A stretch of DNA of 52,045 bases from Nemertoderma westbladi. Its lineage: Eukaryota; Animalia; Xenacoelomorpha. Shown here in pieces: positions 354 through 47,117 of the stretch. Under the pieces are notes generated by a model. That model did no database searches. It saw only the letters and a list, made by a program, of their open reading frames with translations, and was not told the DNA's origin. Made by a program: the position numbers and the translations under genes. Numbering within the stretch: the first letter of the stretch is position 1; the number at the start of each line of letters is the position of its first letter. The stretch spans positions 1 to 52,045 of the forward strand of contig JAUCBJ010001312.1 of NCBI GenBank assembly GCA_032718475.1, in the 5' to 3' direction.

Positions 354-2170
354 ATGACTGAGTTGATAGAAGATGATCTTGGTATCAGGGAGCGATATAC
401 CCTACCACTGCAAGCCTTTGTTGATAGTTTGATAAGCGGCGACGCGAGTCAACACACAACGGAAGATGATGGCTGTTATATCGAACCGCCAATGTCAAAG
501 GAACACTCGGAACAGCTTAAGCGTGAATTGGACTATAGAAAATTCACTGCTCGCTATACGCTTCGTAATGGTATGTATATGGACTTCTTAACTACTGGTC
601 ATCCTATCGATTTACACGATACTGACGATGTAAACACCGAAAGGGAAATGATTCTATTTAAATATCATGCCCAGCGAAGTCGGAATGATAAACTGAGAAT
701 TGAACATGAAAATTCTATTAGAAACCGACTCAAAAGAGAAGAGGTTGAAGAACTGGACAAACGTAGTGACTTTAACGAATATTTAGAATTCTTGAGAGAA
801 ACTTATCACAATGTAGCTAGTCAGCAAAATCTAGAAACTCGATATCCTCAAGGTATACATCATAACCCTATGATGGAACTTAAACGACTCTATTTTACTA
901 TGATGTATCTTACCGCCGATCGACCACTACCTGTTGTACCGGATAGCTTCGGACAGATGGAGGAATACTGTAAAACTGGAGAAAGATCACCAGTGTTTCC
1001 CTTACAAGACGTGCGTCTTTGGTATTACTGCGATGAATGCCCTAGACCCAATCAACAAACAGAAAGACATAAACATCCGCGGAGACATTGCGCTAAACAC
1101 AGTTTTACTCGCTATACTTACGGGAGTTTTGAGCGAAACTTGTTCGACATACCACCTACACTCGCTCGGCTCAAACGATTCTTAAGTAAACCTATGATCA
1201 GAGTTCAGGAATACTCGGTCAGACCTCCTCATTCCCTGGTGCGACCTCAGACTCTTGATCCTAATAGTATGACGGATCCTCATAAGTTGTACTCATTGTT
1301 CAAAGACCTAGTGTTACCCGAACAATTAGTCGGTGGCACTCCGGTTGTGGGCTCTCTAGCTAGATATTCCCCATCCTACCTAGCCGGATTGGGATGCGTA
1401 CATCTAATATCTCCGTTCAACCCATATAATCGTCCTGGTTTAACTCTGATACAACCTGTCACCGAGCTGGAGGAAAGTGTTATACGAAACGCACTAGACG
1501 CAATTCGACAAAAGATCGGAAAGGGAACCTACGATTGTTTAGACAAACGTAAATTGCAACAACAAGTCCAAGCGGTAAAAGTATTAGCTTTACCCCAGTT
1601 CGATCATGAAATCAAGAATCTTGAGGAAGATATCGAACTTGGACGTACATACTCTCTACAAGAGTTCTTAGACGAATGCTTTCAATGACAAGCAGAGGAG
1701 AATCAGCTCGAGGAAAAAAATATCGAAATGGATGAGAGAGAAGAAGCGGCTTTAGCTCAACCGGAAGCTCAAATACTTATTGATAGTAACAATGTGTTGG
1801 CAAGCTGTATTTTTCGAGGTGTTTGTTATTATAAATTTATTATAGGAAGGGATCTAGGGGTCTTAAGACCCCTAGATCCCTTCCTATAACAAATACTTGT
1901 GACTGATATCTATTCCAAAATCATCATGCATCCTTCGATGGTTCCCCATTTCGGAGATAAACTCTTCGCGACAGCACAACCTCAACCAGTTGATATCAAC
2001 TTAAGATCTAGATATCTTATCGCTGACGCTCCTATGTTACAACGTCCGCCAATCGAGGCTGCTCGTGTCGACGGTATACTCGTTGAACCTCCGGACAATC
2101 GAGCGGATCTTCTCCGTCGTATGGTACACGAAGTTAACCTAAGCGCTAGACCTTTACCGAACTCATTTTA
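354..2170 (+). pseudogene. Disrupted long intronless ORF of unknown function (possibly endogenous virus/Polinton-like)
   Basis: 444-aa ORF 354-1688. The same frame stays open after TGA 1686-1688 (QAEENQLEEKNIEMDEREEAALAQPEAQIL) and resumes in frame at 1890 (ORF 1899-2255) after a 111-bp insert. Contains a CDEC...HKHPRRHCAKH putative Zn-binding motif. No family recognised. Confidence 0.5.
1840..1889. repeat. Perfect 50-bp palindrome (no loop)
   Basis: ttataggaagggatctaggggtctt|aagacccctagatcccttcctataa; the two 25-bp arms are exact reverse complements, centred on TTAA. Confidence 0.97.
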
Positions 2171-3081: not shown

Positions 3082-4014
3082 GAAAATGACACTATATTCC
3101 GGGTCATGGTGTATACAAGCAGGCCCGAACAACATAAACACCGAGAGAGAGGATTTGATAATTTCTAAATTAAGGGAGGCCATACAAATAGCCTGCGGAT
3201 CTTGGAAGGATTGTAATATTTTGTTGTTTCAAGTTTAATTATTTTATATTATTATTTTATAATTATTTTATTAGAGAGGTACTACTATGTTATGGGTACC
3301 CACTTTTTGACCATTTATTTGACAATGTTAATGGCTATTATCTTCAGGTTTTTTGTTTTAGAACATTAATGTCATCTTCTGTTAGACGTTAGCTATTGTT
3401 TTTTATGGTAGCTAGTGATTTCTTTTAGGTTGCTACTATTTTTAAAATTACAAAACCAAATTTTTGGTACCTAATTTTTGATCAATTTTTTTACCATATT
3501 ATTGGATATTATCATGATGTTTTTCGTTCTAGAACATAAATTTCACCTTCTGAGAGAGGTTACCTATTATTTTTTATTATGGTAGCTAGTGTTTTTAAAG
3601 GTAGCTAGTGATCTTAAAATTACAAAAGAAATTTTGTAGTGCCCCTTTTATTTAGACAATTTCCATATCATCAATATATTCTCGCAATTAATAAAAAACT
3701 AAATAAATCTAGTAATAAGTAAAATAGGCCTAAATAACTAAATAAGTAAAAACTCTATTTTGACATCTGCCTATATTTTGTATAAAATATAACAAACTAG
3801 CTAGTGAATAATTACTAGCTACTTTGACTATCAAATAACAATTACTAGCTACACTATGACTCATAAATTATTCCATGCAAATATATAATTGAGAATTAAA
3901 TTACCGGTATATCTTACATTTACTAGCTAATAAATAGTACTGCAAAATCAAAAGTACTAGCTACCATCTTACTGTCAGAAGGTCAAATATTTGTTCTAGA
4001 TAAAAAAAACCTCA

Positions 4015-4054
<40 letters not shown>

Positions 4055-4482
4055 TCGGACTTGCCGACAATAAAAGTTTAAAAATATGGCGCAAACACAA
4101 ATGACAGATATCGACACAGAAAGTATATCTACACAGATTATCTACACAGAAAGTAGCCCATTAAATAAAATGTGCACAGCACAGCACTATAGTAAAAATT
4201 TATATAAATTAAAATGCACCATAATATGATCTATTCTGCAACGTTAAAGTATCAAAGTATCAAGTTGTGTTTTTGGTGAAAACTGAGGCAGTTGGTATAC
4301 CGGTACGGGTACACACACATTGTTATAAGAAGATAAAATGTGCACAGCACGAATAAAATCAGATCAATATGGGTAATATAAGGTAAATAATATGGTCCGT
4401 AATAATCATTGACGGTCTCGGGATGATTGAATCAATAAAATATATTTGCAGCACAACACGCAAACAGGCATCGGACAGATGT

Positions 4483-7400
4483 TCAAACGACATTAAAATA
4501 AGACAGGATACGTTTATGCTTAGATATGAAACTTCCGCAGTTACTGTTGCTGTAGCAGTTTTTAATGAAGTTCATCCCAACAGTTTCACTGATTGTTAGT
4601 GGTTCAGTCTTAGCACGGTTAAAGAGGGATCGTTTACAGTAGGTATAGGTGAGTAGACTGTGCAGACTGGGCATTGGGTAATTGCTTCTGCATTTCGCGT
4701 ATGCAGAAGTCAAGCCTACATAGTTTGTGTTCGAGCAGCTATTGAACCGCGAGGCTGATTTGATAAGTGATTGTAAGAATGGGACTGGGCAGCTAGCGAC
4801 TCTTAGTATGGTACCTATGCACTGTTTGTATACCTCATTGTGTAGAGGGCGGCATCCAAGTAGATTGTAAATGATCTGGTTGTTAACGTAGGGGCCGACC
4901 AGTAAGAGACTCCGAAGGGCCTTCCGATACTCAATCTCTAATTTGCGGCTTTCGACTTTACTAAGTGATCCCGCCAAGAACCGAACTGAGTGGGTGATGG
5001 ATGGTACTCCTATCATGCGCCAAAGAAATCCGACGGTATCACAGTCCAAATGACGAGTAGTCCAGCTGCGGCGATGAAAAATATCGGAAGCACGATAAAC
5101 ACACTGGATACACTCCTGAAGGTGGTTGCCATGACCAGTCGGTAATGTGAAGCCAAGGAAGTTCAGTTTCGGGTGAGGCGGGATCAAGGTGCCCCCGATA
5201 TTCAGAAAAGTAGGAACTGCGAATTTTGAACAGCCGCTTCCAAGGTGGTAGTTCCATCGAGTTTTGCTGTCCTCCACTTCCAGATTTGATTCTTGCAGTT
5301 TGTCGATAACTATACCTGTAATGACCTCAAGGTCAGATACAGATCTTGCACAGATTAGAAGGTCATCTGCGTATGCAACAATTCCTAACCACAGATCGGT
5401 GAGATTTTCTCCAAAACCAGATTCTTTCAGTTTCTCCAACACGCCCTTGGTGTAGAAATTGAACAACATCGGAGATAGCAAAGATCCTTGTTTTAATCCT
5501 CTAATGAGCTTGATTCCCTGGTCGTTAATGAGACCACCAAATTTCAGATGAGCGACAGTTTGCATATAATAAGACAACAAAGCTAAGCATATGTGAGGGT
5601 TGATATAATTCATTAACCTTCTAAAGAGAATACTAAGTTCTACATTGTTAAAAGCCCCCGACATATCTAGTTGACATATGAAGACACTGGTTCCCTTTTT
5701 CCGTTGTGCTTCGAGGAATTCTAGAACACCACTGATTATAACATCTGTCCCGATTTTTCGACGGTATGCAAACTGTGAGCTAGGGATATGTTCAGCAATT
5801 TGGATGAATTCGTGGAGTAATACAGATTCGAAGATCTTACCGAAAATACTAACAGAGGAGATAGGACGATAAGATTTGCTTAGCAGTGGATCCCTTTCTT
5901 TGCCCTTGTACAAACTTGTTACAATAGTTTTACCGAAACAAGGGGGAACTTCACCTAATTTGAAACACATATTAATGACATCAGCCATAGTTCGACAGAT
6001 CAGATCGTAGTCTAGAAGTAAAAAGTGTTCCACTACAAGCGAGTATGCGTCTGGAGATTTGCCTTTACCTAAACTAGAAATTGCTTTTCTGATTGTTTCT
6101 GGTGAAATAATAGGAAGGGTTGCATTGTTCTGTAAAACTCTGAGGTCATTCACGATCTGATTAATGGACTCATCAAAGGAGGCATCTTGAATATTGTTTG
6201 AGACCAGATCGGATTCAATTGCGATTTGAGCTGCTGGTGGAGGGATACTAGAGCCCTTGGCATTGAAGGTGGACCAAAACTTCCTTGGGTTTGTGTGCAT
6301 ATAGCTGGCCTTCTTTCTTATGTTACTGGCAACAATTGATTTAGCCAACCAGTTCCTCATCCTGCGGATAGGTCGCCGTGATTCTTTATATGCTTGCCCG
6401 TATATGCAGGAATTACTTTTGTTGTTTTTCAACCACAAATTATGAAGCTGTTTGCAAGTTTTAGATCTGTCGTGTAGTTCAGCCGATCTAATTCTTAGAT
6501 TCTTGGTCTGGCGTCTGACCTTTAATGGGGGCAGGTGGAGAGCGGCACAATTGTTAATTACCATTTGAATTCGTTCAACATACTCAGTTAAAGTAGAAAC
6601 TGTCCAGTTAGTATTCGAAATGTTGAATGCATTACCCAAGTCCATTAGTTGTTTTGCAACATCTGATTGATACAATTCCTGTTGTGCAGGCGTTACTTTG
6701 TTCCAGGCTATCTTGATTGGTGCTGGAATCCGCTTTGTTTTACTTTTGAAGGCAGAGTCAGACCCTTGAAGCGTAAATTCGGCTGTTATAGGCACGTGAT
6801 CAGAGTGGATATTGGAGCTTTCCGTGTACACTGTTCCCTTTTTCAGAAGACTCCTGAGGTAACTATATGGTCAATGTACGAGTTCCCGTGCCCCCGAAAT
6901 GTGATGCAGGGACCAGTGAAAGGTGGGAATGTATCGACTGCAAATAGGTCGTGATTTAGGAGGAAGTTGGATAGTCTGGATCCTTGTGGTGTAGGTTTGG
7001 TTCTAGATGCACGGGGGCCATGGAGCATGCCGAGATCTGAATTGAAGTCTCCTAATATGATTGGAGTAGCATTCTCGTGTATCCGAACAAAGTTACTCAG
7101 ACGAGACAAGAATCTATCGTAACTTGAGATGTTACGGGAAGCATCAGGCGCATAGCAGCACAGTACTAAATATTTCTGTTCATTGTCAGATTCAGCAATA
7201 ACTCCGAGTATATCTTGTTCGCTCTGGACTGGAAATGTATTTTTGAAGACACCATTTCTTATCCATAGTGACACCCCTCCAGCACCTCTCACTCTATTTG
7301 TGTTACTCATGAGTTCACTTATAGTGAAATTGCAGCTGAAGCGGTTATCAAGATGTGATAGCAACTCTTTTCCCTCAATAGCATCTAGCCAATGCTCCTG

Positions 7401-7541
7401 AATGGCTAATATATCTAGGTCACTGAGTAGTTGAGTTATTTCGTCTATACTTGAGTTGAATCCATGACAGTTGAAAGATCCCACTCTTAAGTTAAAGTCC
7501 TGTGTATTAGCTATAGTATGACTCTCAGCCGGTGATGCCAT
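4483..7541 (-). CDS. LINE ORF2 (AP endonuclease + reverse transcriptase), one frameshift near 6850
   Basis: APE motifs SFNCHG, AIQEHWL, LGDFNSD, SYIDHI lie in 6843-7541 and the APE-terminal SDHVPI in 4483-6831. RT motifs YRPISSVS, QFAYR, LDMSGAFNNV, GLKQGSLLSP, AYADDL, FLG. Adding 1 nt restores a single ~1019-aa ORF. Confidence 0.93.
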
Positions 7542-7560
7542 TGTGTGTTGTGTTGTGGTG

Positions 7561-10500
7561 TTAAAAATATATGGGGGATTCTGAACTCAGGCGTCTTTGG
7601 TACCAAACATCCGGATCGTGGAAACGTCCTCTGTATCCAGTGGCCTGGTGGGACTTTTTTACTGTCCACTCACGACACCTGAGTCCATCTGGCCAGAAAT
7701 CATCCTGTAACAGAGATGCCCGCACACCGGCATCAACGGTAACTCTCACTCCTATATAGCCTGAGCGGTGGAAATTTTGAATCCTCTTAGTGTAGAAGAC
7801 TGTGATATTTCTTTTGAGTAAGTGTCGTGTTATGTCTTCTCCACGGGATTTGTGATTAGAGCTTGTGACATAAAGGTAGGCATATGGATATTTTGCGGCA
7901 TCCACACTTGCACTGGTGACTGTTGTATGTTGTGGCTGTTGCCTGTGGTGGTTATCCCTTGAGATGTAGCCAAAATTCATTGTAGGATAATTACTTATGT
8001 TAGGTGTGTGGATATGACTGTTACCCGAGTGCCTAGATTTGTTTGGTACATCACGAAGATTGGGTCCATCTTTCTTGCGATCAGCTGTAGGATTGGTAGA
8101 GTAATTAGACTCAGAGTATGGATGCTTGCTAGTATTTGATTTTGAGTGTTGCATAGAGCGTTTGACTGAGCCACTTCCTTTATGAGAGGTGCTCTGTGGA
8201 GAATAGGAGTGGTGTGCTTTTGATGTTTTCTTGACAGGAATTTCGCTGTGTCTTGTGCGACGCTCATGCTTTTTGACTTGAGGAGCTTCATCAGGACCAC
8301 AATCCGGTGAAGAGCCATCGAATGATTCGATCTCACTGAGAGTGGTGTAGTCGGAGTAGAGTGATTCAGGAGCAGTTGGATTAAGTTCCGGTGTGCTCTG
8401 TAATGCTTCGAATCTGTTAGTTGTAGTAACTCCACTCATAGTATTGCGCCAAGTAGTTCCTCTGGATGTTCTATGAGAGCCAGTTGTGGTTAGGTGCGAT
8501 TTAGCAAGTGGTTGTGAGTCTGCTTTTGGATTTGGCAAGTTCATGTTGACACTTGCAGGTTCTGATTGAGGATGTTGTGTTTGAACACTTGTTAGATCTT
8601 CTAATTTGGCCTGAATTACCAGTCTAGCATGCCTTTCTTGATAGAGCTCGTCTTTCAAGTTTGTGAATTCCTGTTTCAGATTCACATAGGAATCTTCCAT
8701 TTTGGCAAGCCTTGATTGCAGGACATCTACTGACTGTAGCAGGTCTAACCGTAATTGGTTGTAGCCATAATCAACACTGGATTGCTCAGCCAAGATTAGT
8801 CGCTTCCTGCATGGTGCAGTAAAGCACCCTTCTTTCATACAATTCATAAGTTCAAAAACATCCAAGGCCTGTTCTTTAACAGAATTACGATTTTGAAGTA
8901 ACAGACTAACAGACTGAGTTGGCTGCATCAGAGTTCTAACATCATGGAAAAGCTTTTCACGCAAGAGGGAAAGTGTGTTTGAGTTTATACTGACCAATGT
9001 TTTCAATGCCTTTCTTTTGGGGTCTTTTAGCAACTTAGTGAGATTATATTCATTGTAAATAGGAAAAGTAGATTTAGTGTGCTTGTAATTAGAACCGTCA
9101 GAGCTCTTTCCCTCCTTAGACGAATCCTCCTGTTTCCCCTTGGGGTTACTGTGACTCAGTTCACTGTGTGTTGAAGGACAAACTGAGTGATTATTAGAGG
9201 GCGCTGAGGTTTGTATTCCAGAGAGCGCTGAAAGCCGAGATTGAGGTATCCTGTGTTTGTGTAATAGGTCATAGTCTATTTTTGTATCTATAATGACTCC
9301 TTCCAACCATTTACGCACACATCCTACTTTTATCTGTTGAAATATATCTTTGTTGCAGGTGGCCAAGTATAGAGCATATAAACAAATGAATGGGCCACAG
9401 TCGTAATGATTAGGTTGGCTTGGGATATCGCGGTAGCGAGTTTCTGTATGCCATGCTGGATTTGCTACACCTTTGACTCGCTGGATCAGATTTAACAAGT
9501 CGCATAAATGGGACTGAATATTACTGCTATAATCCCTGTTGATTGGACAGAATGAATACAGTTTCTTGTTGACCACTTCAGCTATATGGAGTATATAATG
9601 ACCATTGGCACACTCTGGGAAGAAAATTAATTCATCATTCTCAGGGTCGCAGCTGCTTGTGATATACCTTACTGCAGCAGATACATCAAAATTTTCATGA
9701 TTTAACTTGTAGCAGAGTGAACTATCGATTGAAGAGATGCGAGGGAGATTCCTTTCCAGTATCCCGAAATAGCAATCAATGATTCCCGTTGTCACAAATG
9801 AGGTTCCTTGCAAGCTGTTCATATCGATACTGCCCTGAGTTATGTTAAATAATGGCTTTGGATTGTCTCGACGAGGTTTAGTGATTGCCTTCACAACTTC
9901 CGTTTCATTGAAACCAACCTCTACATCAGCATGGAAAATTCCTTCTAGCCATTGGTCACCGTGATCATCCACAATCGGTTCAGCCCCACTGTGCTCAATG
10001 ATGTGCTCAGAGTTATGGAGTGGTAAACCGCTCTTGTCGCAGTTAGGGTTTAATGTATACTTCACTGCCGATGAGTTTGGGCCCACCTTCTGGTAAAAGT
10101 CAGTTATTTTCAAAGCCTTACTAGTTGGCTGATGCCCTATTGCTGTATCAAGTGGCATTGAGAAGGAGGGAGCTTCAACGTTCAGATCATGCTTAAACAC
10201 ATTAACTACTGCACTGTTTGGAGACTTATGTTGATGAGAAGTAGAATTGGAGTTGCTCTTAATGGGAGAAAGGATTTCGGCATCAACTTGAGTGCTATCT
10301 ATGGGAAGGATAGACTCGGCATTGTCATTAATAATCTTACCCTCCACTTCTCGATGCTTCCAGGTTCCATCATCCTGAAGGCCCATCACAGATATGACAG
10401 GGCGAGCAGGATTGGTATTGGCCGATTTCGGAACTACAGATTTGTGATTGGTGTGTGAGTGTGAAGGTTTGATTATATTTGAAACTGAGAGGTCGATAAG

Positions 10501-13500
10501 AGTAGTGCAATTGTTTCCGAATTTATGTTCGTCATGGTGCCATCGACATGTCCCGTAAATATCGATACCGTTTACATTTGGGACTGAGTTAATGATCGGT
10601 TTTGAGGTATTGTTATAACATGCCCCGAAATTATCAGTATCATTTGTACCACCAATAGGGTTCTCATTCATAACGGGTTGTGAGGCAATATCAACAACAT
10701 TTACACCTTGGACTGAGTTCACATTAGTAGAGGGGTCTAAAATACTGTTACCACATGTCACAAAATTATCAATACCGTTTCCACTTGGAAGTGAGTTCAC
10801 ATTAATAACCGGTTTTAAAAAATTGTTATTAAATGTCCCGAAATTATCAATGACATTTACTCTTGGGACTGGTTTCACATTAGTAACGGGTTGTAAAATA
10901 TTGTCAATGACATTTACACTTGGAACTGGGTTCACATTAACAATCGGTTTTAAAATATTGTTATGAAAAGTCCCGAAATTATCAATACCATTTCCACTTG
11001 GGACTGATTTCACATTAGTAACGGGTTGTAAAATATTGTCAATGACATTTACACTTGGGACTGGGTTCACATTAACAATCGGTTTTAAAATATTGTTATG
11101 AAAAGTCCCGAAATTATCAATACCATTTCCACTTGGGACTGATTTCACATTAGTAACGGGTTGTAAAATATTGTCAATGACATTTACACTTGGGACTGGG
11201 TTCACATTAACAATCGGTTTTAAAATATTGTTATGAAATCTCCCGAAATTATCAATACCAGTTCCACTTGGGACTGGTTTCACATTAGTAACGGGTTGTA
11301 AAATATTGTCAATGACATTTACACTTGGAACTGGGTTCACATTAACAATCGGTTTTAAAATATTGTTATGAAAAGTCCCGAAATTATCAATACCATTTCC
11401 ACTTGGGACTGATTTAACATTAGTAACGGGTTGTAAAATATTGTCAATGACATTTGCACCTGGGACTGGGTTCACATTAGTTACAGGTTTTGAAATATTG
11501 TAAATTGTGTTAAAGCTGGATGGTTGATCAACTTCAGAGATAGATTGAGACATTGCACATATATTGCAACTACAATTGTTATCTACACGGCGGCATCCCT
11601 GAACTGGTTTATCCGGGCCTAACCAGCTCGAAACCTCTGTAGGGGGCAGAGGTTCGATCTTATTAGCAGAGAGTTTGCCCTGGCTCCTTGTGACTGGCCT
11701 TCGGTGTATTCTTCCCTGCCTTTTGACGGTTTTCATGATCTGTTTATCACCTAAATCCGTTGCTACCACAACAGGTGGGAATATATTGTTCGCACTAGTT
11801 GTCTTATTCGTGGCTGTATCATCGTTATCTGAAGTCGGAAGAGCCCCATCAAGTTGGTTCTCTGTAGGATTCGTATCATTGCAGTCGACACGTTTTAGTT
11901 CCAACCCCGAGGATTTGTCCGGGTTGAGTCGAGGAACCGTTCTGTTTTCGGATCGTTTTAGTTCCGACTCCGAGGATTTGTCCGGGTTGAGTCGAGGAAC
12001 CGTTCCGTTGTCGGATCGTTTTAGTTCCGACTCCGAGGATTTGTCCGGGTTGAGTCGAGGAACTGTTCCGTTGTCGGATCGTTTTAGTTCCGACTCCGAG
12101 GATTTGTCCGGGTTGAGTCGAGGAACCGTTCCGTTGTCGGATCGTTTTAGTTCTGACTCCGAGGATTTGTCCGGGTTGAGTCGAGGAACCGCTCCGTTGT
12201 CGGATCGTTTTAGTTCCGACTCCGAGGATTTGTCCGGGTTGAGTCGAGGAGCCGTTCCATTTTCGGATCGTTTTAGTTCCGACTCCGAGGATTTGTCCGG
12301 GTTGAGTCGAGGAACCGTTCCGTTGTCGGATCGTTTTAGTTCCGACTCCGAGGATTTGTCCGGGTTGAGTCGAGGAACCGTTCCGTTGTCGGATCGTCTT
12401 AGTTCCGACTCCGAGGATTTGTCCGGGTTGAGTCGAGGAACCGTTCCGTTGTCGGATCGTTTTAGTTCCGACTCCGAGGATTTGTCCGGGTTGAGTCGAG
12501 GAACCGTTCCATTGTCGGATCGTTTTAGTTCCGACTCCGAGGATTTGTCTGGGTTGAGTCGAGGAACCGTTCCATTTTCGGATCGTTTTAGTTCCGACTC
12601 CGAGGATTTGTCCGGGTTGAGTCGAGGAACCGTTCCATTGTCGGATCGTTTTAGTTCCGACTCCGAGGATTTGTCCGGGTTGAGTCGAGGAACCGTTCCG
12701 TTGTCGGATCGTTTTAGTTCCGACTCCGAGGATTTGTCCGGGTTGAGTCGAGGAGCCATTCCATTTTCGGATCGTTTTAGTTCCGACTCCGAAGATCTGT
12801 CCGGGTTGAGTCGAGGAACCGTTCCGTTGTCGGATCGTTTTAGTTCCGACTCCGAGGATTTGTCCGGGTTGAGTTGAGGAACCGTTCCGTTGTCAGTTCG
12901 TTTTAGTTCCGACTCCGAGGATTTGTCCGGGTTAAGTTGAGGAACCGTTCCGTTGTCAGTTCGTTTTAGTTCCGACTCCGAGGATTTGTCCGGGTTGAGT
13001 TGAGGAACCGTTCCGTTGTCAGTTCGTTTTAGTTCCGACTCCGAGGATTTGTCCGGGTTGAGTTGAGGAACCGTTCCGTTGTCGGATCGTTTTAGTTCCG
13101 ACTCCGAGGATTTGTCCAGGTTGAGTCGAGGAACCGTTCCGTTGTCAGATCGTTTTAGTTCCAACTCCGAGGATTTGTCCGGGTTGAGTTGAGGAACCGT
13201 TCCGTTGTCGGATCGTTTTAGTTTCGACTCCGAGGATTTGTCCGGGTTGAGTCGAGGAGCCGTTCCATTTTCGGATCGTTTTAGTTCCGACTCCGAAGAT
13301 TTGTCCGGGTTGAGTCGAGGAACCGTTCCGTTGTTGGATCGTTTTAGTTTTGACTCCGAGGATTTGTCCGGGTTGAGTCGAGGAGCCGTTCCATTTTCGG
13401 ATCGTTTTAGTTCCGACTCCGAGGATTTGTCCGGGTTGAGTTGAGGAACCGTTCCGTTGTCGGATCGTTTTAGTTTCGACTCCGAGGATTTGTCCGGGTT

Positions 13501-13710
13501 GAGTCGAGGAACCGTTCCGTTGTCGGATCGTTTTAGTTCCGACTCCGAGGATTTGTCCGGGTTGAGTTGAGGAACCGTTCCGTTGTCGGATCGTTTTAGT
13601 TCCGACTCCGAGGATTTGTCTGGGTTTGAACGAGTCCCAGGATGGATGGGTCGATGAAGAACCGGTAGTCGGCTTTTTAATTTGGCAGGTGTCCTGGCAA
13701 GAGACGGCAT
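7561..13710 (-). CDS. LINE ORF1, ~2049 aa: tandem repeats + Ulp1/C48-like protease + coiled coil + ORF1 C-terminal domain
   Basis: First ATG at 13710 (the track start 13842 is TTG). Motifs: GHYILHIAEV...IPSQPNHYDCGPFICLYA (C48-like, ~9290-9850); heptad-like LQSRLAKMEDSYVNLKQEFTNLKDEL (~8590-8760); NRFEAL; C-terminal LYVT...FWPDGLRCREW (~7640-7890) typical of LINE ORF1. Confidence 0.88.
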   Translation of the reverse strand: MPSLARTPAKLKSRLPVLHRPIHPGTRSNPDKSSESELKRSDNGTVPQLNPDKSSESELKRSDNGTVPRLNPDKSSESKLKRSDNGTVPQLNPDKSSESELKRSENGTAPRLNPDKSSESKLKRSNNGTVPRLNPDKSSESELKRSENGTAPRLNPDKSSESKLKRSDNGTVPQLNPDKSSELELKRSDNGTVPRLNLDKSSESELKRSDNGTVPQLNPDKSSESELKRTDNGTVPQLNPDKSSESELKRTDNGTVPQLNPDKSSESELKRTDNGTVPQLNPDKSSESELKRSDNGTVPRLNPDRSSESELKRSENGMAPRLNPDKSSESELKRSDNGTVPRLNPDKSSESELKRSDNGTVPRLNPDKSSESELKRSENGTVPRLNPDKSSESELKRSDNGTVPRLNPDKSSESELKRSDNGTVPRLNPDKSSESELRRSDNGTVPRLNPDKSSESELKRSDNGTVPRLNPDKSSESELKRSENGTAPRLNPDKSSESELKRSDNGAVPRLNPDKSSESELKRSDNGTVPRLNPDKSSESELKRSDNGTVPRLNPDKSSESELKRSDNGTVPRLNPDKSSESELKRSENRTVPRLNPDKSSGLELKRVDCNDTNPTENQLDGALPTSDNDDTATNKTTSANNIFPPVVVATDLGDKQIMKTVKRQGRIHRRPVTRSQGKLSANKIEPLPPTEVSSWLGPDKPVQGCRRVDNNCSCNICAMSQSISEVDQPSSFNTIYNISKPVTNVNPVPGANVIDNILQPVTNVKSVPSGNGIDNFGTFHNNILKPIVNVNPVPSVNVIDNILQPVTNVKPVPSGTGIDNFGRFHNNILKPIVNVNPVPSVNVIDNILQPVTNVKSVPSGNGIDNFGTFHNNILKPIVNVNPVPSVNVIDNILQPVTNVKSVPSGNGIDNFGTFHNNILKPIVNVNPVPSVNVIDNILQPVTNVKPVPRVNVIDNFGTFNNNFLKPVINVNSLPSGNGIDNFVTCGNSILDPSTNVNSVQGVNVVDIASQPVMNENPIGGTNDTDNFGACYNNTSKPIINSVPNVNGIDIYGTCRWHHDEHKFGNNCTTLIDLSVSNIIKPSHSHTNHKSVVPKSANTNPARPVISVMGLQDDGTWKHREVEGKIINDNAESILPIDSTQVDAEILSPIKSNSNSTSHQHKSPNSAVVNVFKHDLNVEAPSFSMPLDTAIGHQPTSKALKITDFYQKVGPNSSAVKYTLNPNCDKSGLPLHNSEHIIEHSGAEPIVDDHGDQWLEGIFHADVEVGFNETEVVKAITKPRRDNPKPLFNITQGSIDMNSLQGTSFVTTGIIDCYFGILERNLPRISSIDSSLCYKLNHENFDVSAAVRYITSSCDPENDELIFFPECANGHYILHIAEVVNKKLYSFCPINRDYSSNIQSHLCDLLNLIQRVKGVANPAWHTETRYRDIPSQPNHYDCGPFICLYALYLATCNKDIFQQIKVGCVRKWLEGVIIDTKIDYDLLHKHRIPQSRLSALSGIQTSAPSNNHSVCPSTHSELSHSNPKGKQEDSSKEGKSSDGSNYKHTKSTFPIYNEYNLTKLLKDPKRKALKTLVSINSNTLSLLREKLFHDVRTLMQPTQSVSLLLQNRNSVKEQALDVFELMNCMKEGCFTAPCRKRLILAEQSSVDYGYNQLRLDLLQSVDVLQSRLAKMEDSYVNLKQEFTNLKDELYQERHARLVIQAKLEDLTSVQTQHPQSEPASVNMNLPNPKADSQPLAKSHLTTTGSHRTSRGTTWRNTMSGVTTTNRFEALQSTPELNPTAPESLYSDYTTLSEIESFDGSSPDCGPDEAPQVKKHERRTRHSEIPVKKTSKAHHSYSPQSTSHKGSGSVKRSMQHSKSNTSKHPYSESNYSTNPTADRKKDGPNLRDVPNKSRHSGNSHIHTPNISNYPTMNFGYISRDNHHRQQPQHTTVTSASVDAAKYPYAYLYVTSSNHKSRGEDITRHLLKRNITVFYTKRIQNFHRSGYIGVRVTVDAGVRASLLQDDFWPDGLRCREWTVKKSHQATGYRGRFHDPDVWYQRRLSSESPIYF
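10555..11500 (-). repeat. 135-bp (45-aa) coding repeat made of two related subunits, ~5 good copies plus degenerate ones
   Basis: NNILKPIVNVNPVPSVNVIDNILQPVTNVKSVPSGNGIDNFGTFH; atcaatacca at 10981 and 11116 gives period 135. Confidence 0.92.
11890..13627 (-). repeat. 63-bp coding tandem repeat (NPDKSSESELKRSDNGTVPRL), ~27.5 copies
   Basis: Directly visible; in frame in ORF1, substitutions only. Confidence 0.97.
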
Positions 13711-14249
13711 TGCATCGGTGGCGATGTGTGGCGATATATTACAGCAGTAATCTGGTAATACAGTCTGACAGTAGGCGTTATAATTACTAATTATATTCGG
13801 AATGCATCCATGTTCAGCATGATCCGGTCTCTTAAAAATCAAATCAAAAAATCAAAAAATTATAGGCCTACAGTGAAGTTTTAATTGGCTACTGGTACCT
13901 GGGTACTGATAATAAATTAGTATAATAAATTGTATAATAAATAGTATAATAAATTACATTTTTACAAGAAAAAACGTGGTAAATTTTTTTTCAATTTTTC
14001 AATTGAAATTTTTTTAACTAGCTAATAAAAAGTACTAGCTAAAACAAAATTAAAATTACTAGCTACCATCGTACTGGCAGAAAGTTAAATATTTGTTCTA
14101 GAACAAAAAACCTCATGATAAAAGCCATTTTCATATGAAACAATTTGTTTAAAAAGTGGGTACCCATAACATAGTAGTACCCGCAGAGACTGCCTGGTAT
14201 CTATGACCAATTCTTTGATTAAGAACCTGAAATATGAAATATAAGTATG

Positions 14250-15101
14250 ATGAAAGATATCCTAAAAAACAACCATCCATGCAGACAGGTAAAAATTAAT
14301 ATTGAATTTCATTTGGTCTTTTCATACATTGTAAATTTAGTTGCTTATAAGATGTCGCAAAATTAAGATTACTTGCTTCACATAAAACACTGCTGTACTC
14401 CTTTTACCAGTAGGCCTACCCGTAGCAGGTATCTGGGTTTATAGTGTTTATAGATGGCAGTATTTTGCGTACCGGTAGTTGTATTTAACGTGCCACCATA
14501 ACCTTCTTATTTCCCTTAATAAATAATTTACCATGAGACATGCTAATAATTTGCCAATGACAGCATTTGCGTCAATTCCCCATCGCGATCAGCCCCATTG
14601 CCAACAACTCCGACTATGTATAAAGTAGTGTTAAGCGGCTTTCTAGTTACGTAATAAATATTCGAAAACACTAAACTATTTACGGCCACCGTCAGCCGGT
14701 CCGCCGCTAAACGCAGATCGCATCGCATTCCTCGTCAACGCAACATCGACGTAAGTCTGACTTTTCCCACCGCACTCCGTGCCCGGAGTAAGAAACTCGG
14801 TATTATGATCCGACTGACCCCGTGTTCCCAGTGTAGAAAATATAATTAAACATTACTGCTTTCATTGCTGCATTGAACACAACTATCGGGACGCAAAAGA
14901 CTGCAATCTATAAAGCCAGATACCTGCTACCGGTAGGCCTACTGGTAAAAGCAGTACAGCAGTGTTTTATGTGAAGTAAGTAATCTTAATTTAGCGACAT
15001 CTTATACGCAACTAAATTTATAATGTATGAAAAGACCAAATTAAATTCAATATTAAATTTCACCTGTCTGCATGGATGGTTGTTTTTAGATTATCTTTCA
15101 T
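14250..15101. mobile_element. MITE-like element with ~195-bp inverted arms
   Basis: 14250-14444 (atgaaagatatcc...ggtatctgggtttatag) is the imperfect reverse complement of 14908-15101; non-coding GC-richer core. Confidence 0.8.
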
Positions 15102-15559: not shown

Positions 15560-17859
15560 CCCTTTCCGGCCGACTGTATATTTTTGTATACACTGAATTT
15601 ATTTCACTATGAATTGCATAATTTTAACTAATTATAGTTGGTTTCATCCAATTGAGACCCTATCACACTTCCTTTACTTATAAATTACCGATTCTGATTG
15701 GATAATTGTAGTAGAAGGCTTCAATGAACGATTTTAGATGCTGTGTTTTCAGGTATTGACATGATGACTACCTGGCATAGGAAAGATGGTTATTTAAATG
15801 CTTTGGCAAAGCGATATTGAGAATTTTGATTGGGTATTCCAAAGATGGATTGTCCAATGAGATAATAATACTTCCATGATAAACTTTACAGTACAGGTAG
15901 GCTGGTAGTGTTATTGATAAACCACTGTATACATTTGTCTACGTTAGGTTTATAAAGTTGGGGAGTAGAAGTGGTGCAGCCACAGTTGGGGACTAGATGT
16001 GGTGCAGCACCGTTGGGGAGTAGATGTGATTCAGCCACCGTTTGTGTGATGTGGTGCTTCCACCATTGGGGTGTGTGTAGGCCTAGATGTGGTGCTGCCA
16101 CCATAGGGGAGTCGATGTTGACCATTGGGGTGTAGTGGTGGCGCAGCCACCATGGGGAGTAGATGTTGACCATAGGATAGTAGAGGTGATGCAGCCACCA
16201 TTGTAGATAGATGTGGTGCAGTCGTCATTGGAGAGTAGATGTGGAACAGCCTCCATTGGGGAGTAGATGTGGCGTAGCCACCATAGTGGAGTAGATGTTG
16301 ATCATTGGGCCTTGGGAGTAGATGTGATGCAGCCACTATTGGGGAGTAGATGTGGCGAAGTCGCCATTGGGCCTTGGGAGTAGATGTGATGCAGCCACCA
16401 TAGGGGAGTAGATGTGGTACATCCACCACCGTAGGGGTGTAGATATGGTGCAGCCACCATTGGAAAGTAAATCTGGCGAACCCAGAAATTGGGGAGTAGA
16501 TGTGGTGCAGCCACCATTGGGGAGTAAATCTGGCGCACCCATCATTTGGAAGTAGATGTGGTGCAGCCACCATTGATGAGTAGATGTGGTGCAGCTATCA
16601 TTGCGGAGTAGATATGGTGCAGCCACCATTGATGAGTAGATGTGGTTCAGCCACCATTGGGGAGTAGATGCTGACCATTGATGAGTAGATGTGGTGCAGA
16701 CACCATAGTGGAGTAGATGTTAACCATTGGGCCTTGGTAGTAGATGTGATTCAGCCACCATTGGGGAGTAGATGTGGTGCAGCCACCATTGATGAGTAGA
16801 TGTGGTGCAGCCACCATTGGGGTGTAGATGCTGACCATTGATGAGTAGATGTGGTGCAGACACCATAGTGGAGTAGATGTTAACCATTGGGCCTTGGTAG
16901 TAGATGTGATTCAGCCACCATTGGGGAGTAGATGTAGTGCAGCCACCATTGATGAGTAGATGTGGTGCAGCCACCACAGTGGAGTAGATGCTGAGCATTG
17001 GTGAGTAGATATGGTGTAGCCACCATATGGAGTAAATGTTGACCATTGGGGATTAGATGTGGTGTAGCCACCATATGGAGTAGATGTTAACCATTGGGCC
17101 ATGGGAATAGATGTGATTCAGCCACCATTGGGGAGTAGATGTAGTGCAGCCACTGTTTAGGAGTAGATGTTGTACACTCACATTATACAGGCAGGGCAGA
17201 TAGACATACAAACAGTTGAAAAAGGTCAGTCGAAACTGTTTTTTTCAAACTTTAACAAAACTGACAGAAAAAACATTCACTGTATAATTCTTCCTTTTTA
17301 AGTTTTTTTGTCGCACTGTGTTGCTTTTAAACAACGTGTGTTGTGAAAACACACAAAATTATAAAATTTTGCCATTTTGGCAAATTTCACAGTATTGACA
17401 GCTTTTCATTCCGAAAAAACGTAATTTAAATTTTTTATAAGAATATACTACTAGGATCGGCATGCTGCATTGCAGCTGCATTTTTAAGAATGCTGTGCCG
17501 GCTTGTCAACAAAATTGCGCCGCCACAACTCCCTATCACCCATGACATTTGCTAGATCATCCGCATCTTTAAGGCCAGTGTCCTTTAAGATGCGTCTCAA
17601 TAAGATATAAGAATATACTTTCTATACGATGTATGTATGTAAGTAAGTACGTACAATCTAGAGTTCGTATACAAAAGTATACATTGGGAATATGTTTCAT
17701 ATACCTAACGTATACTTTTGTATACAATAAAAAAAACAACATTGGAAATAATTTTTTGAAAATTTTTTCATCGAAAATTATTATTTGGTGTATAATTAAC
17801 CCATTAACAAGACCAAACAATTTTTTTTCCTAAATTAAATTAATTCAGGCCGGAAAGGG
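15560..17859. mobile_element. Non-autonomous piggyBac element
   Basis: TTAA-CCCTTTCCGGCC ... GGCCGGAAAGGG-TTAA; TTAA TSD at 15556-15559 and 17860-17863; removal rejoins the HECT frame. Confidence 0.93.
15955..17175. repeat. ~29-bp minisatellite (ggggagtagatgtggtgcagccaccattg) inside the piggyBac element
   Basis: Variable units with a 160-bp higher-order duplication (16681 vs 16841). Confidence 0.92.
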
Positions 17860-19808: not shown

Positions 19809-21848
19809 TTATTCTTGATAATTAAATACAAATTGCTTGCAATATAAATAGCAGTCAACACCGTATTTATTATCGGAATTATCAGACCCAAATCGGTGAT
19901 TGATTTCACTGAGTAACTGTCTTTCAGATTCTTCGGATATAGGACGTTCAATATTGGTAACATCAACAACTGTCTCTTGATCCTCAACAATCTGACCAAT
20001 CTACTCCGTAATTATCTAGGTTTATATTGTTCAGCTCATCTGGTACGTTGTCGATGTCACAAGTCGATGTTAATCAGCTATTGATGAAAATCTTCTGGGG
20101 GGTCCAGTAGCGCTCCGTGCGTAACCCATGTGCATTCCAACCAATTACAAATTTTTCAAGAGCCGCGTTTATTTGTTTCTTGTAAGTAATATGCAAACAA
20201 TATATATCATCGACAGAGGAGGGATCTAAATGGGAGTTGTCTTCTAGCCAAAAAAACAGCTCATAATAAACAATAACAACAGTACGGAATAGATCTCTCC
20301 ATAAGCGTTCTATCCTTTGATTGTGAGTACTTTTCCCTGCAATAAAGCTTCCTCAATTTGTGCCTCGATGCCTTATCATATATTCGGCGACCAGTCTATT
20401 TTCCCCTCCCTTATCTCCTCTCACCCTTGAAGGGAGGCCGTATTTCCTAACTGCTTCCTCGAACAATGGCAAAACAGTTGCAGCACAGTTGTTACCCGAT
20501 GCATAAAGGTATGTAATCACTAATCAGACGGGAAAATCCATCAATCCCACCTCGTACAGTCGAATTAGCGAAAACATTCAATTGTAAACAATCATGAAAT
20601 TTCGGTTTCCATCAACATTTAAATTTTAAAATTCCATCAACATTTAATATTCTAGAATATATATAATATCATAACAGGGCCTATACTACCTATTTTGCTA
20701 TTTCACTTCAGTTTTAGTTATCGATCCGAGATATTAATGTTTTTTTATAGAGTGGCTTTCAACAAAAAAAAACTACAAAAGTCGAGGCAAAAGTAACATT
20801 TTTTGTCTTACTTTCTTATTTGTCTTTCTACACTCGACAATGTTCGCGATAAGTTAATGTAATTTCAACAGTTCTAAAATGTCCTAGTTTGTTTCAATTA
20901 CATGCGATTTGTATATATATGTGACGTCTTTAATATGTCCCCAATTTGTTTGAACAATTATTTTACCGTTGTGCCAAAGCAAAGGATACATTTGTTGTAA
21001 CCTTTCTTTCTTAATAATAAATTGATGGTGAATAAAGTTATTTATTTGCCTTCAGCTATGTTTCGCTTTTTCGAAAGTACTAACCATGTATTACGAAGTT
21101 CCACCTTATGAGGCTATGATGGCCATCGATGTGCAATAAAGAAACCCTTTACATAATATCGTCGTCGGACCAAAAGCGCTCGCCACCTTGCTGCGGATAA
21201 AATGGGGTCGATTTCCCTTAAGACACGATGAACATGTAGAAGCGCGATGAACATATTTTGACTTCGTAGCATGGCATACACGAATCTACATCCCGCATAA
21301 GGGAATTGTTGATGAATTTCACCAATAACTTCTTTAATTTGGTTTTCATTTTCTAACGTATTGCGATACAAGTTTCGAACTCCCAAACCAAATTGACGAA
21401 CTCGGTCCATAATAGTTGATCGACTCACTCCAAATATCGCAGCAATCTGAGTCCAGTTAAATCCCGCCTCTTTGAGGTATTCAAGTTGAGACTTAGTAAC
21501 GTCGTATCTTGGTCTCCCCGCATTGTCAGGTCCCGGTCCATTATGTGTGAGAACATGATTAAACAAAGAAGTGCAATCAGGACTGACCCTTATGTACAAG
21601 TTGGCGATACGAACTTGTAGGTATTGATCTTATGGCAGATATTCAACAATTGCTGAATCATGAGCTGTCAAATTATTAGATTCCTTTATCATAGTTAAGC
21701 AATTACATATATTGGTGAGTTTAGCTAATAGGTACTACTTGAATTCGTCATTAATTAATTGAGGTGAGTAATCAGGTTTTAAAACACATTCGCATTCGGT
21801 TATGATATGTTCCCAATGGTTGACAAATATACTTGCCGGAATTTCCAT
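19809..21848 (-). pseudogene. IS3EU-type HTH + integrase-core (DDE) transposase pseudogene
   Basis: GRPRYDVTKSQLEYLKEAGFNWTQIAAIFGVSRST (HTH), RRRYYVKG, HIDGHH.LIRWNFVIHG|[47 protein letters not shown]; several stops and frameshifts. Confidence 0.9.
20552..21082. mobile_element. 531-bp TIR insertion with 3-bp TSD forming a GT-AG intron in the transposase
   Basis: Imperfect TIRs tcgtacagtcgaattagcgaaaacat / atgtttcgctttttcgaaagtacta; ACC duplicated at 20549-20551 and 21083-21085. Confidence 0.65.
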
Positions 21849-36472: not shown

Positions 36473-39400
36473 GTAGGCCTACAGTACATAAGTATATACA
36501 ACAGTAGTAGGCCTACATTACATAAGTATATACAACAGTAGTAGGCCTACAGTACATAAGTATATACAACAGTAGTAGGCCTACAGTACATAAGTATATA
36601 CAACAGTAGTAGGCCTACAGTACATAAGTATATACAACAGTAGTAGGCCTACAGTACATAAGTATATACAACAGTAGTAGGCCTACAGTACATAAGTATA
36701 TACAACAGTAGTAGGCCTACAGTACATAAGTATATACAACAGTAGTAGGCCTACAGTACATAAGTATATACAACAGTAGTAGGCCTACAGTACATAAGTA
36801 TATACAACAGTAGTAGGCCTACAGTACATAAGTATATACAACATTAGTAGGCCTACAGTACATAAGTATATACAACATTAGTAGGCCTACAGTACATAAG
36901 TATATACAACATTAGTAGGCCTACAGTACATAAGTATATACAACATTAGTAGGCCTACAGTACATAAGTATATACAACATTAGTAGGCCTACAGTACATA
37001 AGTATATACAACAGTAGTAGGCCTACAGTACATAAGTATATACAACATTAGTAGGCCTACAGTACATAAGTATATACAACAGTAGTAGGCCTACAGTACA
37101 TAAGTATATACAACATTAGTAGGCCTACAGTACATAAGTATATACAACAGTAGTAGGCGGACAGTACATAAGTATATACAACAGTAGTAGGCCTACAGTA
37201 CATAAGTATATACAACAGTAGTAGGCCTACAGTACATAAGTATATACAACATTAGTAGGCCTACAGTACATAAGTATATACAACAGTAGTAGGCCTACAG
37301 TACATAAGTATATACAACATTAGTAGGCCTACAGTACATAAGTATATACAACAGTAGTAGGCCTACAGTACATAAGTATATACAACATTAGTAGGCCTAC
37401 AGTACATAAGTATATACAACAGTAGTAGGCCTACAGTACATAAGTATATACAACAGTAGTAGGCCTACAGCAGTACATAAGTATATACAACAGTAGTAGG
37501 CCTACAGTACATAAGTATATACAACAGTAGTAGGCCTACAGTACATAAGTATATACAACAGTAGTAGGCCTACAGTACATAAGTATATACAACATTAGTA
37601 GGCCTACAGTACATAAGTATATACAACAGTAGTAGGCCTACAGTACATAAGTATATACAACAGTAGTAGGCCTACAGTACATAAGTATATACAACATTAG
37701 TAGGCCTACAGTACATAAGTATATACAACAGTAGTAGGCCTACAGTACATAAGTATATACAACATTAGTAGGCCTACAGTACATAAGTATATACAACATT
37801 AGTAGGCCTACAGTACATAAGTATATACAACATTAGTAGGCCTACAGTACATAAGTATATACAACAGTAGTAGGCCTACAGTACATAAGTATATACAACA
37901 GTAGTAGGCCTACAGTACATAAGTATATACAACAGTAGTAGGCCTACAGTACATAAGTATATACAACAGTAGTAGGCCTACATTACATAAGTATATACAA
38001 CAGTAGTAGGCCTACAGTACATAAGTATATACAACAGTAGTAGGCCTACAGTACATAAGTATATACAACAGTAGTAGGCCTACAGTACATAAGTATATAC
38101 AACAGTAGTAGGCCTACAGTACATAAGTATATACAACAGTAGTAGGCCTACAGTACATAAGTATATACAACATTAGTAGGCCTACAGTACATAAGTATAT
38201 ACAACAGTAGTAGGCCTACAGTACATAAGTATATACAACAGTAGTAGGCCTACAGTACATAAGTATATACAACATTAGTAGGCCTACAGTACATAAGTAT
38301 ATACAACAGTAGTAGGCCTACAGTACATAAGTATATACAACAGTAGTAGGCCTACAGTACATAAGTATATACAACATTAGTAGGCCTACAGTACATAAGT
38401 ATATACAACATTAGTAGGCCTACAGTACATAAGTATATACAACAGTAGTAGGCCTACAGTACATAAGTATATACAACATTAGTAGGCCTACAGTACATAA
38501 GTATATACAACAGTAGTAGGCCTACAGTACATAAGTATATACAACATTAGTAGGCCTACAGTACATAAGTATATACAACAGTAGTAGGCCTACAGTACAT
38601 AAGTATATACAACAGTAGTAGGCCTACAGTACATAAGTATATACAACATTAGTAGGCCTACAGTACATAAGTATATACAACAGTAGTAGGCCTACAGTAC
38701 ATAAGTATATACAACAGTAGTAGGCCTACAGTACATAAGTATATACAACAGTAGTAGGCCTACAGTACAGTACATAAGTATATACAACAGTAGTAGGCCT
38801 ACAGTACAGTACATAAGTATATACAACATTAGTAGGCCTACAGTACATAAGTATATACAACAGTAGTAGGCCTACAGTACATAAGTATATACAACATTAG
38901 TAGGCCTACAGTACATAAGTATATACAACATTAGTAGGCCTACAGTACATAAGTATATACAACAGTAGTAGGCCTACAGTACAGTACATAAGTATATACA
39001 ACAGTAGTAGGCCTACAGTACAGTACATAAGTATATACAACATTAGTAGGCCTACAGTACATAAGTATATACAACAGTAGTAGGCCTACAGTACATAAGT
39101 ATATACAACAGTAGTAGGCCTACAGTACAGTACATAAGTATATACAACATTAGTAGGCCTACAGTACATAAGTATATACAACAGTAGTAGGCCTACAGTA
39201 CATAAGTATATACAACAGTAGTAGGCCTACAGTACATAAGTATATACAACATTAGTAGGCCTACAGTACATAAGTATATACAACATTAGTAGGCCTACAG
39301 TACATAAGTATATACAACATTAGTAGGCCTACAGTACATAAGTATATACAACAGTAGTAGGCCTACAGTACAGTACATAAGTATATACAACAGTAGTAGG

Positions 39401-46981: not shown

Positions 46982-47117
46982 TACATCTATATCTATAACA
47001 TATATTTTACATTGACCTTTGCCTCTGACCATATTTTTTGTGTTGGACATATTATTTAAAACTGTCAATAAAAAAAAATGTATTTCCATTTATGTCTCGT
47101 ATTGCTTTCCATCACAG

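Follow-up and report, generated by a model that had tools for sequence, protein, structure and literature searches.

A two-ORF LINE with a protease-like domain

The window, by which we mean the whole 52,045-nucleotide stretch of DNA analysed here, comes from Nemertoderma westbladi (assembly GCA_032718475.1, contig JAUCBJ010001312.1, positions 1 to 52,045 of the forward strand). Its minus strand carries a long interspersed nuclear element (LINE) of ~9.8 kb that contains open reading frame 1 (ORF1), followed by ORF2 with an apurinic/apyrimidinic-type (APE) endonuclease and a reverse transcriptase (RT), and a simple-repeat (AAT)n 3' tail. This is the layout of a two-ORF APE-type LINE. Within ORF1, and in frame with it, lies a domain predicted to have the Ulp1/SENP (peptidase C48) fold at 9286..9855 on the minus strand (aa ~1286-1475), recognised by sequence searches and an AlphaFold2 model.

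The original prediction for this DNA had described ORF1 as one uninterrupted frame of ~2049 aa, and ORF1 (7561..13710, minus strand, read from 13710 to 7561) is indeed open throughout its 2049 codons. A spacer of 19 bases separates it from ORF2. The endonuclease part of ORF2 is encoded at 6843..7541 on the minus strand (Pfam Exo_endo_phos, E 3e-12), and the linker and RT part at 4483..6852 on the same strand (Pfam RVT_1, E 4e-28), the latter as one open frame of 789 aa. A Pfam scan of this RT part gave no RNase H and no zinc-finger family.

Homology of the ORF1 domain with Ulp1/SENP proteases

We searched the last 799 aa of ORF1 against 1.84 billion proteins and obtained 36 matches. Of these, 33 fall on the C48 stretch, at 24-34% identity and with a best E of 1.8e-11; every one of them is a Pfam Peptidase_C48 protein. 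The remaining three match the C-terminus of ORF1, and none spans both parts. Among PDB sequences, phmmer matched the domain to yeast Ulp1 (E 7e-5) and SENP1 (E 2e-4). Scored directly against Pfam Peptidase_C48, the domain reached 20.1 bits, slightly short of the cut-off of 20.7. The AlphaFold2 model has a pLDDT of 87.8 and was matched by Foldseek to SENP2 (E 4.5e-11, TM 0.80) and by VIA to SENP5 (Z 24.2, rmsd 1.9 over 185 residues), with SENP3/5 at Z 24. With this alignment-biased model the comparison gave Z 21-24 for Ulp1/SENP-type proteases versus 11-13 for viral processing proteases. The motifs FFPECANGHY (aa 1363, nt 9624-9595) and QPNHYDCG (aa 1432, 9417-9394) lie where the original prediction had placed them, as does the codon of the catalytic Cys (9399-9397). 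The profile search and structure prediction that it had proposed yielded C48 homology and a matching CE-clan fold, and the sequence homology of this in-frame domain is beyond chance. From these matches we conclude that the domain is homologous to SENP1/2/5-type proteases.

The fusion in other copies of the element

Three sequencing runs from two studies (X1, X2 and X3) contain the stretch, and one of them may be the source of the window. In each run a single contig bridges the endonuclease, the ORF1 C-terminus and the C48 domain (7240-10680 in X1, 7186-10103 in X2, 6834-10103 in X3). Because contigs from two studies link these three parts, the protease fusion is a family trait. Absence of the domain from other copies would have counted against the original prediction, and contigs of all three runs carry the fusion. 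We also considered a frameshift or misassembly artefact as the source of the fusion and rejected it, since contigs of three runs show it. A run from a third study (X5) covered 3 of 30 bins of the stretch, and no RNA run was among the runs listed as containing it.

The copies are ~0.3-0.8% different. Relative to the window copy, X1 has 11 differences and X2 has 10 (all listed), and 17 of the 26 in X3 are listed; among those listed for X1 and X2, none falls at His1371, Cys1388, Gln1432 or Cys1438. The window copy is 10 bases shorter at 6853 than the contigs of the three runs, resulting in an ORF2 frame change near 6853-6860 that is absent from them. Differences common to the three runs were mostly synonymous in ORF1 (7 of 9 versus 2.6 expected, P 0.0025), and in ORF2 the corresponding count was 6 of 11 versus 3.4 expected (P 0.085). 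Thus, ORF1 as a whole is under selection. Contig depth climbs toward the 3' end of the element (88, 152 and 236 in X1; 40-69, 147 and 218 in X2; 140, 302 and 573 in X3), a pattern expected from 5' truncation, although depth is not copy number. The element is a young, likely low-copy APE-type LINE.

Active site and predicted specificity

The predicted site residues are His1371 (9600-9598), Gln1432 (9417-9415) and the nucleophile Cys1438 (9399-9397), with Cys1388 (9549-9547) in the slot of the triad Asp. His1371, Gln1432 and Cys1438 are retained in columns that are invariant across all 33 relatives. We defined conserved columns as those with at least 80% agreement among the 33 relatives; 17 of the 20 such columns are kept, including His1371, Gln1432, Asn1434, Asp1437 and Cys1438 plus a conserved Gly, and three are changed (Trp to Tyr1372, Asp to Cys1388, Ser to Pro1389). 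The branch leading to the domain was the longest in both trees that we built (2.8 and 3.8 changes per column). Retention of Cys, His and Gln over such a branch argues for catalysis, and long selection on the catalytic site would be the simplest reading, because 17 of 20 columns are kept despite low identity and the longest branch.

Ulp1 has a C580-H514-D531 triad, and W448 and W515 form a tunnel for Gly-Gly (PMC9603560). With Ulp1 residues numbered from chain 1euv_A, the tunnel and exosite equivalents in ORF1 are Phe1305 (W448), Tyr1372 (W515) and Thr1308 (Asp451), so that both tunnel Trp residues are swapped for other aromatics. The original prediction had read the peptidase C48 (Ulp1) signature of a SUMO-type protease here. 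That the enzyme is a canonical SUMO protease is doubtful, since Cys stands for the Asp of the triad, Phe and Tyr for Trp448 and Trp515, and Thr for Asp451. The domain is better classed, from its residues, as a C48-like variant than as a canonical member, because its acid slot holds Cys1388, which is neither Asp nor Asn. The exosite changes likewise argue against a plain SENP1-type SUMO specificity. Compared with cellular Ulp1 and SENP1, 2, 3 and 5 (PF02902), the LINE domain is alike in sequence, predicted fold, His/Gln/Cys and QxNxxDCG, whereas it is internal rather than C-terminal, shares 17-31% identity and differs at the triad Asp, the two tunnel Trp residues and Asp451.

ORF1 outside the protease-like domain

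The original prediction called ORF1 giant. The length of 2049 aa stands, but the size is largely repeat expansion, with 820 aa (40%) in tandem repeats. One is a 63-bp in-frame repeat (11891..13626, minus strand; TRF, 27.6 copies) with a charged 21-aa unit, 579 aa in all; the other is a 135-bp in-frame repeat (10778..11501, minus strand; TRF, 5.4 copies) with a 45-aa unit rich in Val/Ile/Asn that includes VNVID, 241 aa in all. Without them ORF1 would have about 1230 aa. Among the six frames of the 63-bp array, that of ORF1 is the sole one free of stops. Depth of the 63-bp unit was ~15 times that of the ORF1 5' part (1378/88 in X1, 633/40 in X2, 2113/140 in X3), and there is a hint that this repeat is a family trait with variable length. 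We rejected ORF1 size as a sign of extra domains; at E<=0.05, Pfam was empty for aa 607-737 and 978-1285.

VNVID occurs five times in the 45-aa repeat (10778-11501, minus strand), and VNVVD is present at aa 1003. We liken VNVID to a hydrophobic SUMO-interacting motif (SIM), presuming the consensus of the latter, and take the likeness as a lead only. The motif appeared in 4.6% of shuffles of the 45-aa unit, and it lacks an acidic flank.

Downstream of the C48 domain, ORF1 resembles an ordinary LINE ORF1. NRFEAL (aa 1765) and WPDGLRCREW (aa 2006) are located as the original prediction stated. A likely coiled coil (aa ~1656-1710; 8581..8745, minus strand) was recognised by its heptad-like sequence and is weakly matched by coiled-coil families (E 0.08-0.18; E 0.1-0.3 in a second scan). 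The C-terminal domain of ~90 aa (aa 1936-2023; 7642..7905, minus strand), with FWPxGxxCRxW, was aligned by hhalign with three relatives of 522-651 aa (92.6%, E 4.6e-7). This support is restricted to the C-terminal domain, and the helical part at aa 1541-1650 gets none. No Pfam family matched the C-terminal domain, which we take to be an RRM-like RNA-binding fold. Its relatives are three unnamed proteins of 522-651 aa and one of 287 aa, none with C48; presumably they are LINE ORF1s. Since these relatives lack C48, the C48 domain is probably an addition, which suggests an ancestral ORF1 of ~500-650 aa to which the protease and the repeats were added later.

Comparison with known elements and search for a donor

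The original prediction held that Ulp1 domains occur in NeSL and Mutator elements, and the literature agrees (PMC4640811, PMC2836005). An N-terminal Ulp1-like protease has been reported in NeSL elements and Utopia-1_TSP, which are non-LTR retrotransposons of the restriction-like endonuclease (RLE) type (PMC4640811), and Ulp1 domains have been reported in the DNA transposons Ginger1 and Mutator (PMC2836005). In plant Mutator elements (KIU), Ulp1 is fused to the anti-silencing protein VANC, with unknown function (PMC13317346). Like NeSL and Utopia, the LINE described here is a non-LTR retrotransposon with an Ulp1-like cysteine protease domain upstream of the RT. However, those elements have a single ORF, zinc fingers and a C-terminal restriction-like endonuclease, and carry the protease on the RT protein, whereas this LINE has two ORFs and an N-terminal APE endonuclease in ORF2, and carries the domain on the ORF1 structural protein. 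We therefore did not assign it to the NeSL/Utopia group, given its two ORFs and N-terminal APE endonuclease. Ginger1 and Mutator (Kaonashi/KIU-VANC) resemble it in having a captured C48 domain joined to an element protein, and in KIU this domain is attached to an anti-silencing protein. They are, in contrast, DNA transposons with C48 on the transposase or VANC, not on an RNA-packaging protein.

Modules described in ORF1 proteins (ORF1p) are RRM, CCHC, coiled coil, PHD and esterase (PMC3905857, PMC5408684, PMC4120745). The esterase-type (type IV) and PHD-type ORF1p of CR1, L2 and RTEX are similar to the present one in having an accessory module in a coiled-coil ORF1p of an APE-type LINE, but that module is an esterase or PHD finger and here it is a cysteine protease fold. 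A Pfam scan of ORF1 returned no esterase, PHD or CCHC family. An SGNH esterase in ORF1 has been described for some RTEX (PMC5408684, PMC3905857); it is absent from this ORF1 by the Pfam scan, and not all RTEX need carry one. The nearest proteins to ORF2 (17 matches, 22-30% identity) have no clade label, which leaves the RTEX-like assignment of the original prediction putative. Curated bivalve LINEs are 1.8-9.1 kb long, with a mean of 4.9 kb for RTE-X (PMC10294476).

The original prediction knew of no Ulp1 domain in an APE-type LINE ORF1, and among the matches listed in our literature search there was no APE-type LINE ORF1 with a protease; Repbase Reports, Dfam, subscription journals and survey supplements may hold such a layout. 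The words protease, peptidase, Ulp1 and OTU have no occurrence in the main text of a survey of ORF1 from 448 elements (PMC4120745) or of two LINE surveys (PMC5203782, PMC13343379), and the available portions of PMC6338049, PMC11203168 and PMC10294476 contain no such case.

Our searches for other carriers gave similar results. A word-indexed search with an 800-aa stretch of domain plus core found none among 7992 candidates. Longer relatives of the ORF1 C-terminal domain numbered 4 of 2658 candidates, none of the four with C48. An RT scan of metagenome contigs was negative for all 38 stretches. In the C48 scan, none of the best 80 of 225 relatives' loci had an RT, APE or ORF1-core match, a weak negative as most loci span a few kb.

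No close donor of the domain was found in the search of 1.84 billion proteins. In the first tree (two short rows left out) the domain grouped with two proteins, P0021 and P0034, with support of 94/91. In the second, from which 15 rows were left out and which lacked the other long branch, this grouping fell to 55/13. As donor, the P0021/P0034 group lacks the backing of this second tree. P0034 is a 676-aa protein whose Ulp1 domain shares the HY and CGPFIC variants with the LINE domain, and it is possibly of the donor type. After its Ulp1 domain comes a region that to us resembles what precedes the RT in NeSL/Hero elements, a label that we assume.

Possible functions of the domain

The reading that we prefer, which we hold tentatively and place a little short of probable, is that the domain is a remodelled isopeptidase, still working on SUMO or a related tag and carried by a multimer of ORF1p. 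A C48 fold and a long repetitive N-terminal tail would have been gained in front of an ordinary ORF1 core of ~500 aa. ORF1p would multimerise via its coiled coil and coat the element RNA, so that many protease domains travel with the ribonucleoprotein (RNP). Catalysis would be by the Cys-His pair, helped by Cys1388 as the substitute for Asp. The Phe/Tyr tunnel may still admit a small-residue C-terminus, and the altered exosite residues may give a weaker or shifted tag specificity. The domain would then strip proteins close to the RNP of SUMO or of another, related ubiquitin-like tag, and the element would benefit through relief from SUMO-dependent silencing or restriction. We infer in this way that the protease is expressed and active, as well as its substrate and benefit. 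The original prediction had suggested that the domain might deSUMOylate silencing factors or process ORF1 itself. In fly ovaries SUMO knock-down derepressed many transposable elements, with R1 and R2 transcripts up ~1000- and ~300-fold (PMC7676866). This link in flies provides a motive for the idea but is no evidence for the LINE in the window. We consider unlikely a bolder version, in which a SUMO/ubiquitin-like isopeptidase with a Cys-His-Cys triad is fed by the SIM-like VNVID repeats and strips SUMO from host silencing or restriction factors.

Several observations weigh against a working isopeptidase. LINE ORF1p is mainly cytoplasmic, away from chromatin SUMO targets. In an enlarged C48 alignment of 105 rows (the 33 relatives and 72 distinct metagenome C48 frames), 89 have His and Cys in register; their triad acid slot holds Asp in 82, Asn in six, Lys in one (likely misaligned) and Cys in none. 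Ulp1 Trp448, Asn450, Asp451 and Phe474 align with Phe, Thr, Thr and Ser in the LINE domain, and Thr in the Asp451 position was seen in 5 of the 89. In Ulp1 itself, a D451N mutation abolishes the interaction with Smt3 (PMC3216068). The AlphaFold2 model was built with an alignment that includes the 33 SENP-like relatives, making its fold match consistent with the sequence homology rather than independent of it, and a single-sequence model reached a pLDDT of only 34. Because the domain was found through its motifs, ascertainment bias may have affected the number of residues counted as kept. The C48 domain contains one variable site alone, and the selection signal concerns ORF1 rather than the protease. 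The searches turned up no second lineage carrying the fusion, a weak absence in collections thin in animal repeats; the fusion may for this reason be a one-off capture.

One rival proposal is that catalysis by the domain is weak or has been lost: after its capture the Ulp1 would have become a binding or spacer module, or it would be a slowly decaying passenger in an ORF maintained for its core. We consider this somewhat unlikely. The replacement of the triad Asp by Cys, seen in none of the 89 relatives, is in keeping with it, as are the changes at Asp451, Asn450 and Phe474, the longest tree branch, the Pfam score under the cut-off, the large repeat expansions that the N-terminal part of ORF1 tolerates and the lack of a selection signal from variable sites within the domain. 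By contrast, Cys, His and the oxyanion Gln have been kept over that very long branch, along with 17 of 20 conserved columns. A Cys as third residue also has precedent: papain-like enzymes are often Cys-His dyads and the Tae1 amidase holds its histidine with a cysteine (PMC10318531). A role in SUMO binding alone is weakened too if the loss of Asp451 does away with that binding.

A maturation protease that cuts the ORF1 polyprotein, freeing an RNP core of ~500 aa from the repetitive front of 1300-1500 aa, seems quite improbable to us. It would be analogous to the CE-clan proteases of adenovirus, poxvirus and African swine fever virus that process viral precursors, and the C48-related families C05, C57 and C63 do so (PMC10318531). 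Catalytic Cys/His/Gln are kept while SUMO-contact residues are changed, as such a role would predict, and ORF1 has a single Gly-Gly (aa 1020-1021), placed after the repeats and before the domain. However, one Gly-Gly is at chance level and none lies between domain and core; all 33 relatives are of Ulp1/SENP type, and the alignment-biased model is farther from the viral proteases. We regard as very improbable that the protease frame is from another element (NeSL/Hero-like or a DNA transposon), newly joined to the 5' end, with the working ORF1p starting at Met1595. Met is absent between aa 1298 and 1594, and a protein started at Met1595 would still contain both the coiled coil and the C-terminal domain. 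Other transposable elements commonly carry Ulp1 domains, copies ~0.3-0.8% apart need little selection to keep the frame open, and one tree pairs the domain with a protein that we take to resemble NeSL/Hero (94/91). This pairing weakens to 55/13 without the other long branch, though, and no close donor emerged. Further, the junction shows no stop, frameshift or composition step (GC and GC at third codon positions are 0.40/0.41 in the domain, 0.43/0.38 in the core and 0.42/0.43 in the RT), only the ORF1 frame is open across 27 repeat units, and length differences in the X3 ORF1 contigs total 6 and 12 bases.

If the bolder version with a Cys-His-Cys isopeptidase acting against host silencing were true, ORF1p would gain an enzyme class new to it and the LINE would encode its own counter-defence; the active site of a C48 enzyme whose third residue is Cys would be a new variant. 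Beside the PHD fingers and esterases described so far, a protease fold would be a further kind of ORF1p accessory module, and with it two-ORF LINEs join NeSL/Utopia, Ginger1 and Mutator among the elements that have repeatedly captured Ulp1. What keeps Ulp1 domains in transposons is an open question, their function being unknown even in KIU-VANC (PMC13317346); a young family with intact copies offers a small, testable case. Were the domain dead, it would be a curiosity of one genome.

Ends of the element and other features of the window

The 3' untranslated region spans 4046..4482 (minus strand) from the ORF2 stop to the tail, and contigs of other copies start at 4057. The (AAT)n tail at 4015..4045 (minus strand; TRF, period 3, 10.3 copies, 100%) is the 3' end of the LINE. 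A 5' leader common to other copies lies at 13711..13780 (minus strand); shared cover stops near 13780, and the true 5' end is uncertain. The reading frame continues open for 47 codons upstream of the ORF1 ATG. Next to the apparent 5' end we found no target-site duplication. The two flanks of the LINE (3295-4014 and 13946-14187) consist of copies of the same high-copy repeat of ~171 bp, which has very high depth, and an X1 contig at depth 50 connects the LINE 5' end to it. The LINE may have a target preference for this repeat.

Elsewhere in the window, 354-1688 (plus strand) holds an intronless ORF of 444 aa with a Cys/His cluster and a weak match to Pfam DUF7009 (E 4e-4), possibly of mobile-element or virus origin; it is followed at 1890-2255 by a frame of 121 codons without a match. 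A split transposase lies at 19809-21629 (minus strand), with a helix-turn-helix part at 21114-21629 and an rva_4 integrase core (E 6e-31) at 20074-20352; we presume it to be an IS481-like eukaryotic DNA transposon. At 14265-15087 there is an element resembling a miniature inverted-repeat transposable element, with inverted arms of 180 bp that are 463 bases apart and 94% complementary. Tandem arrays comprise a 28-bp array at 15957-17170 and a 10.5-kb satellite at 36473-46986 with a 34-bp unit repeated 305 times at 95% matches.

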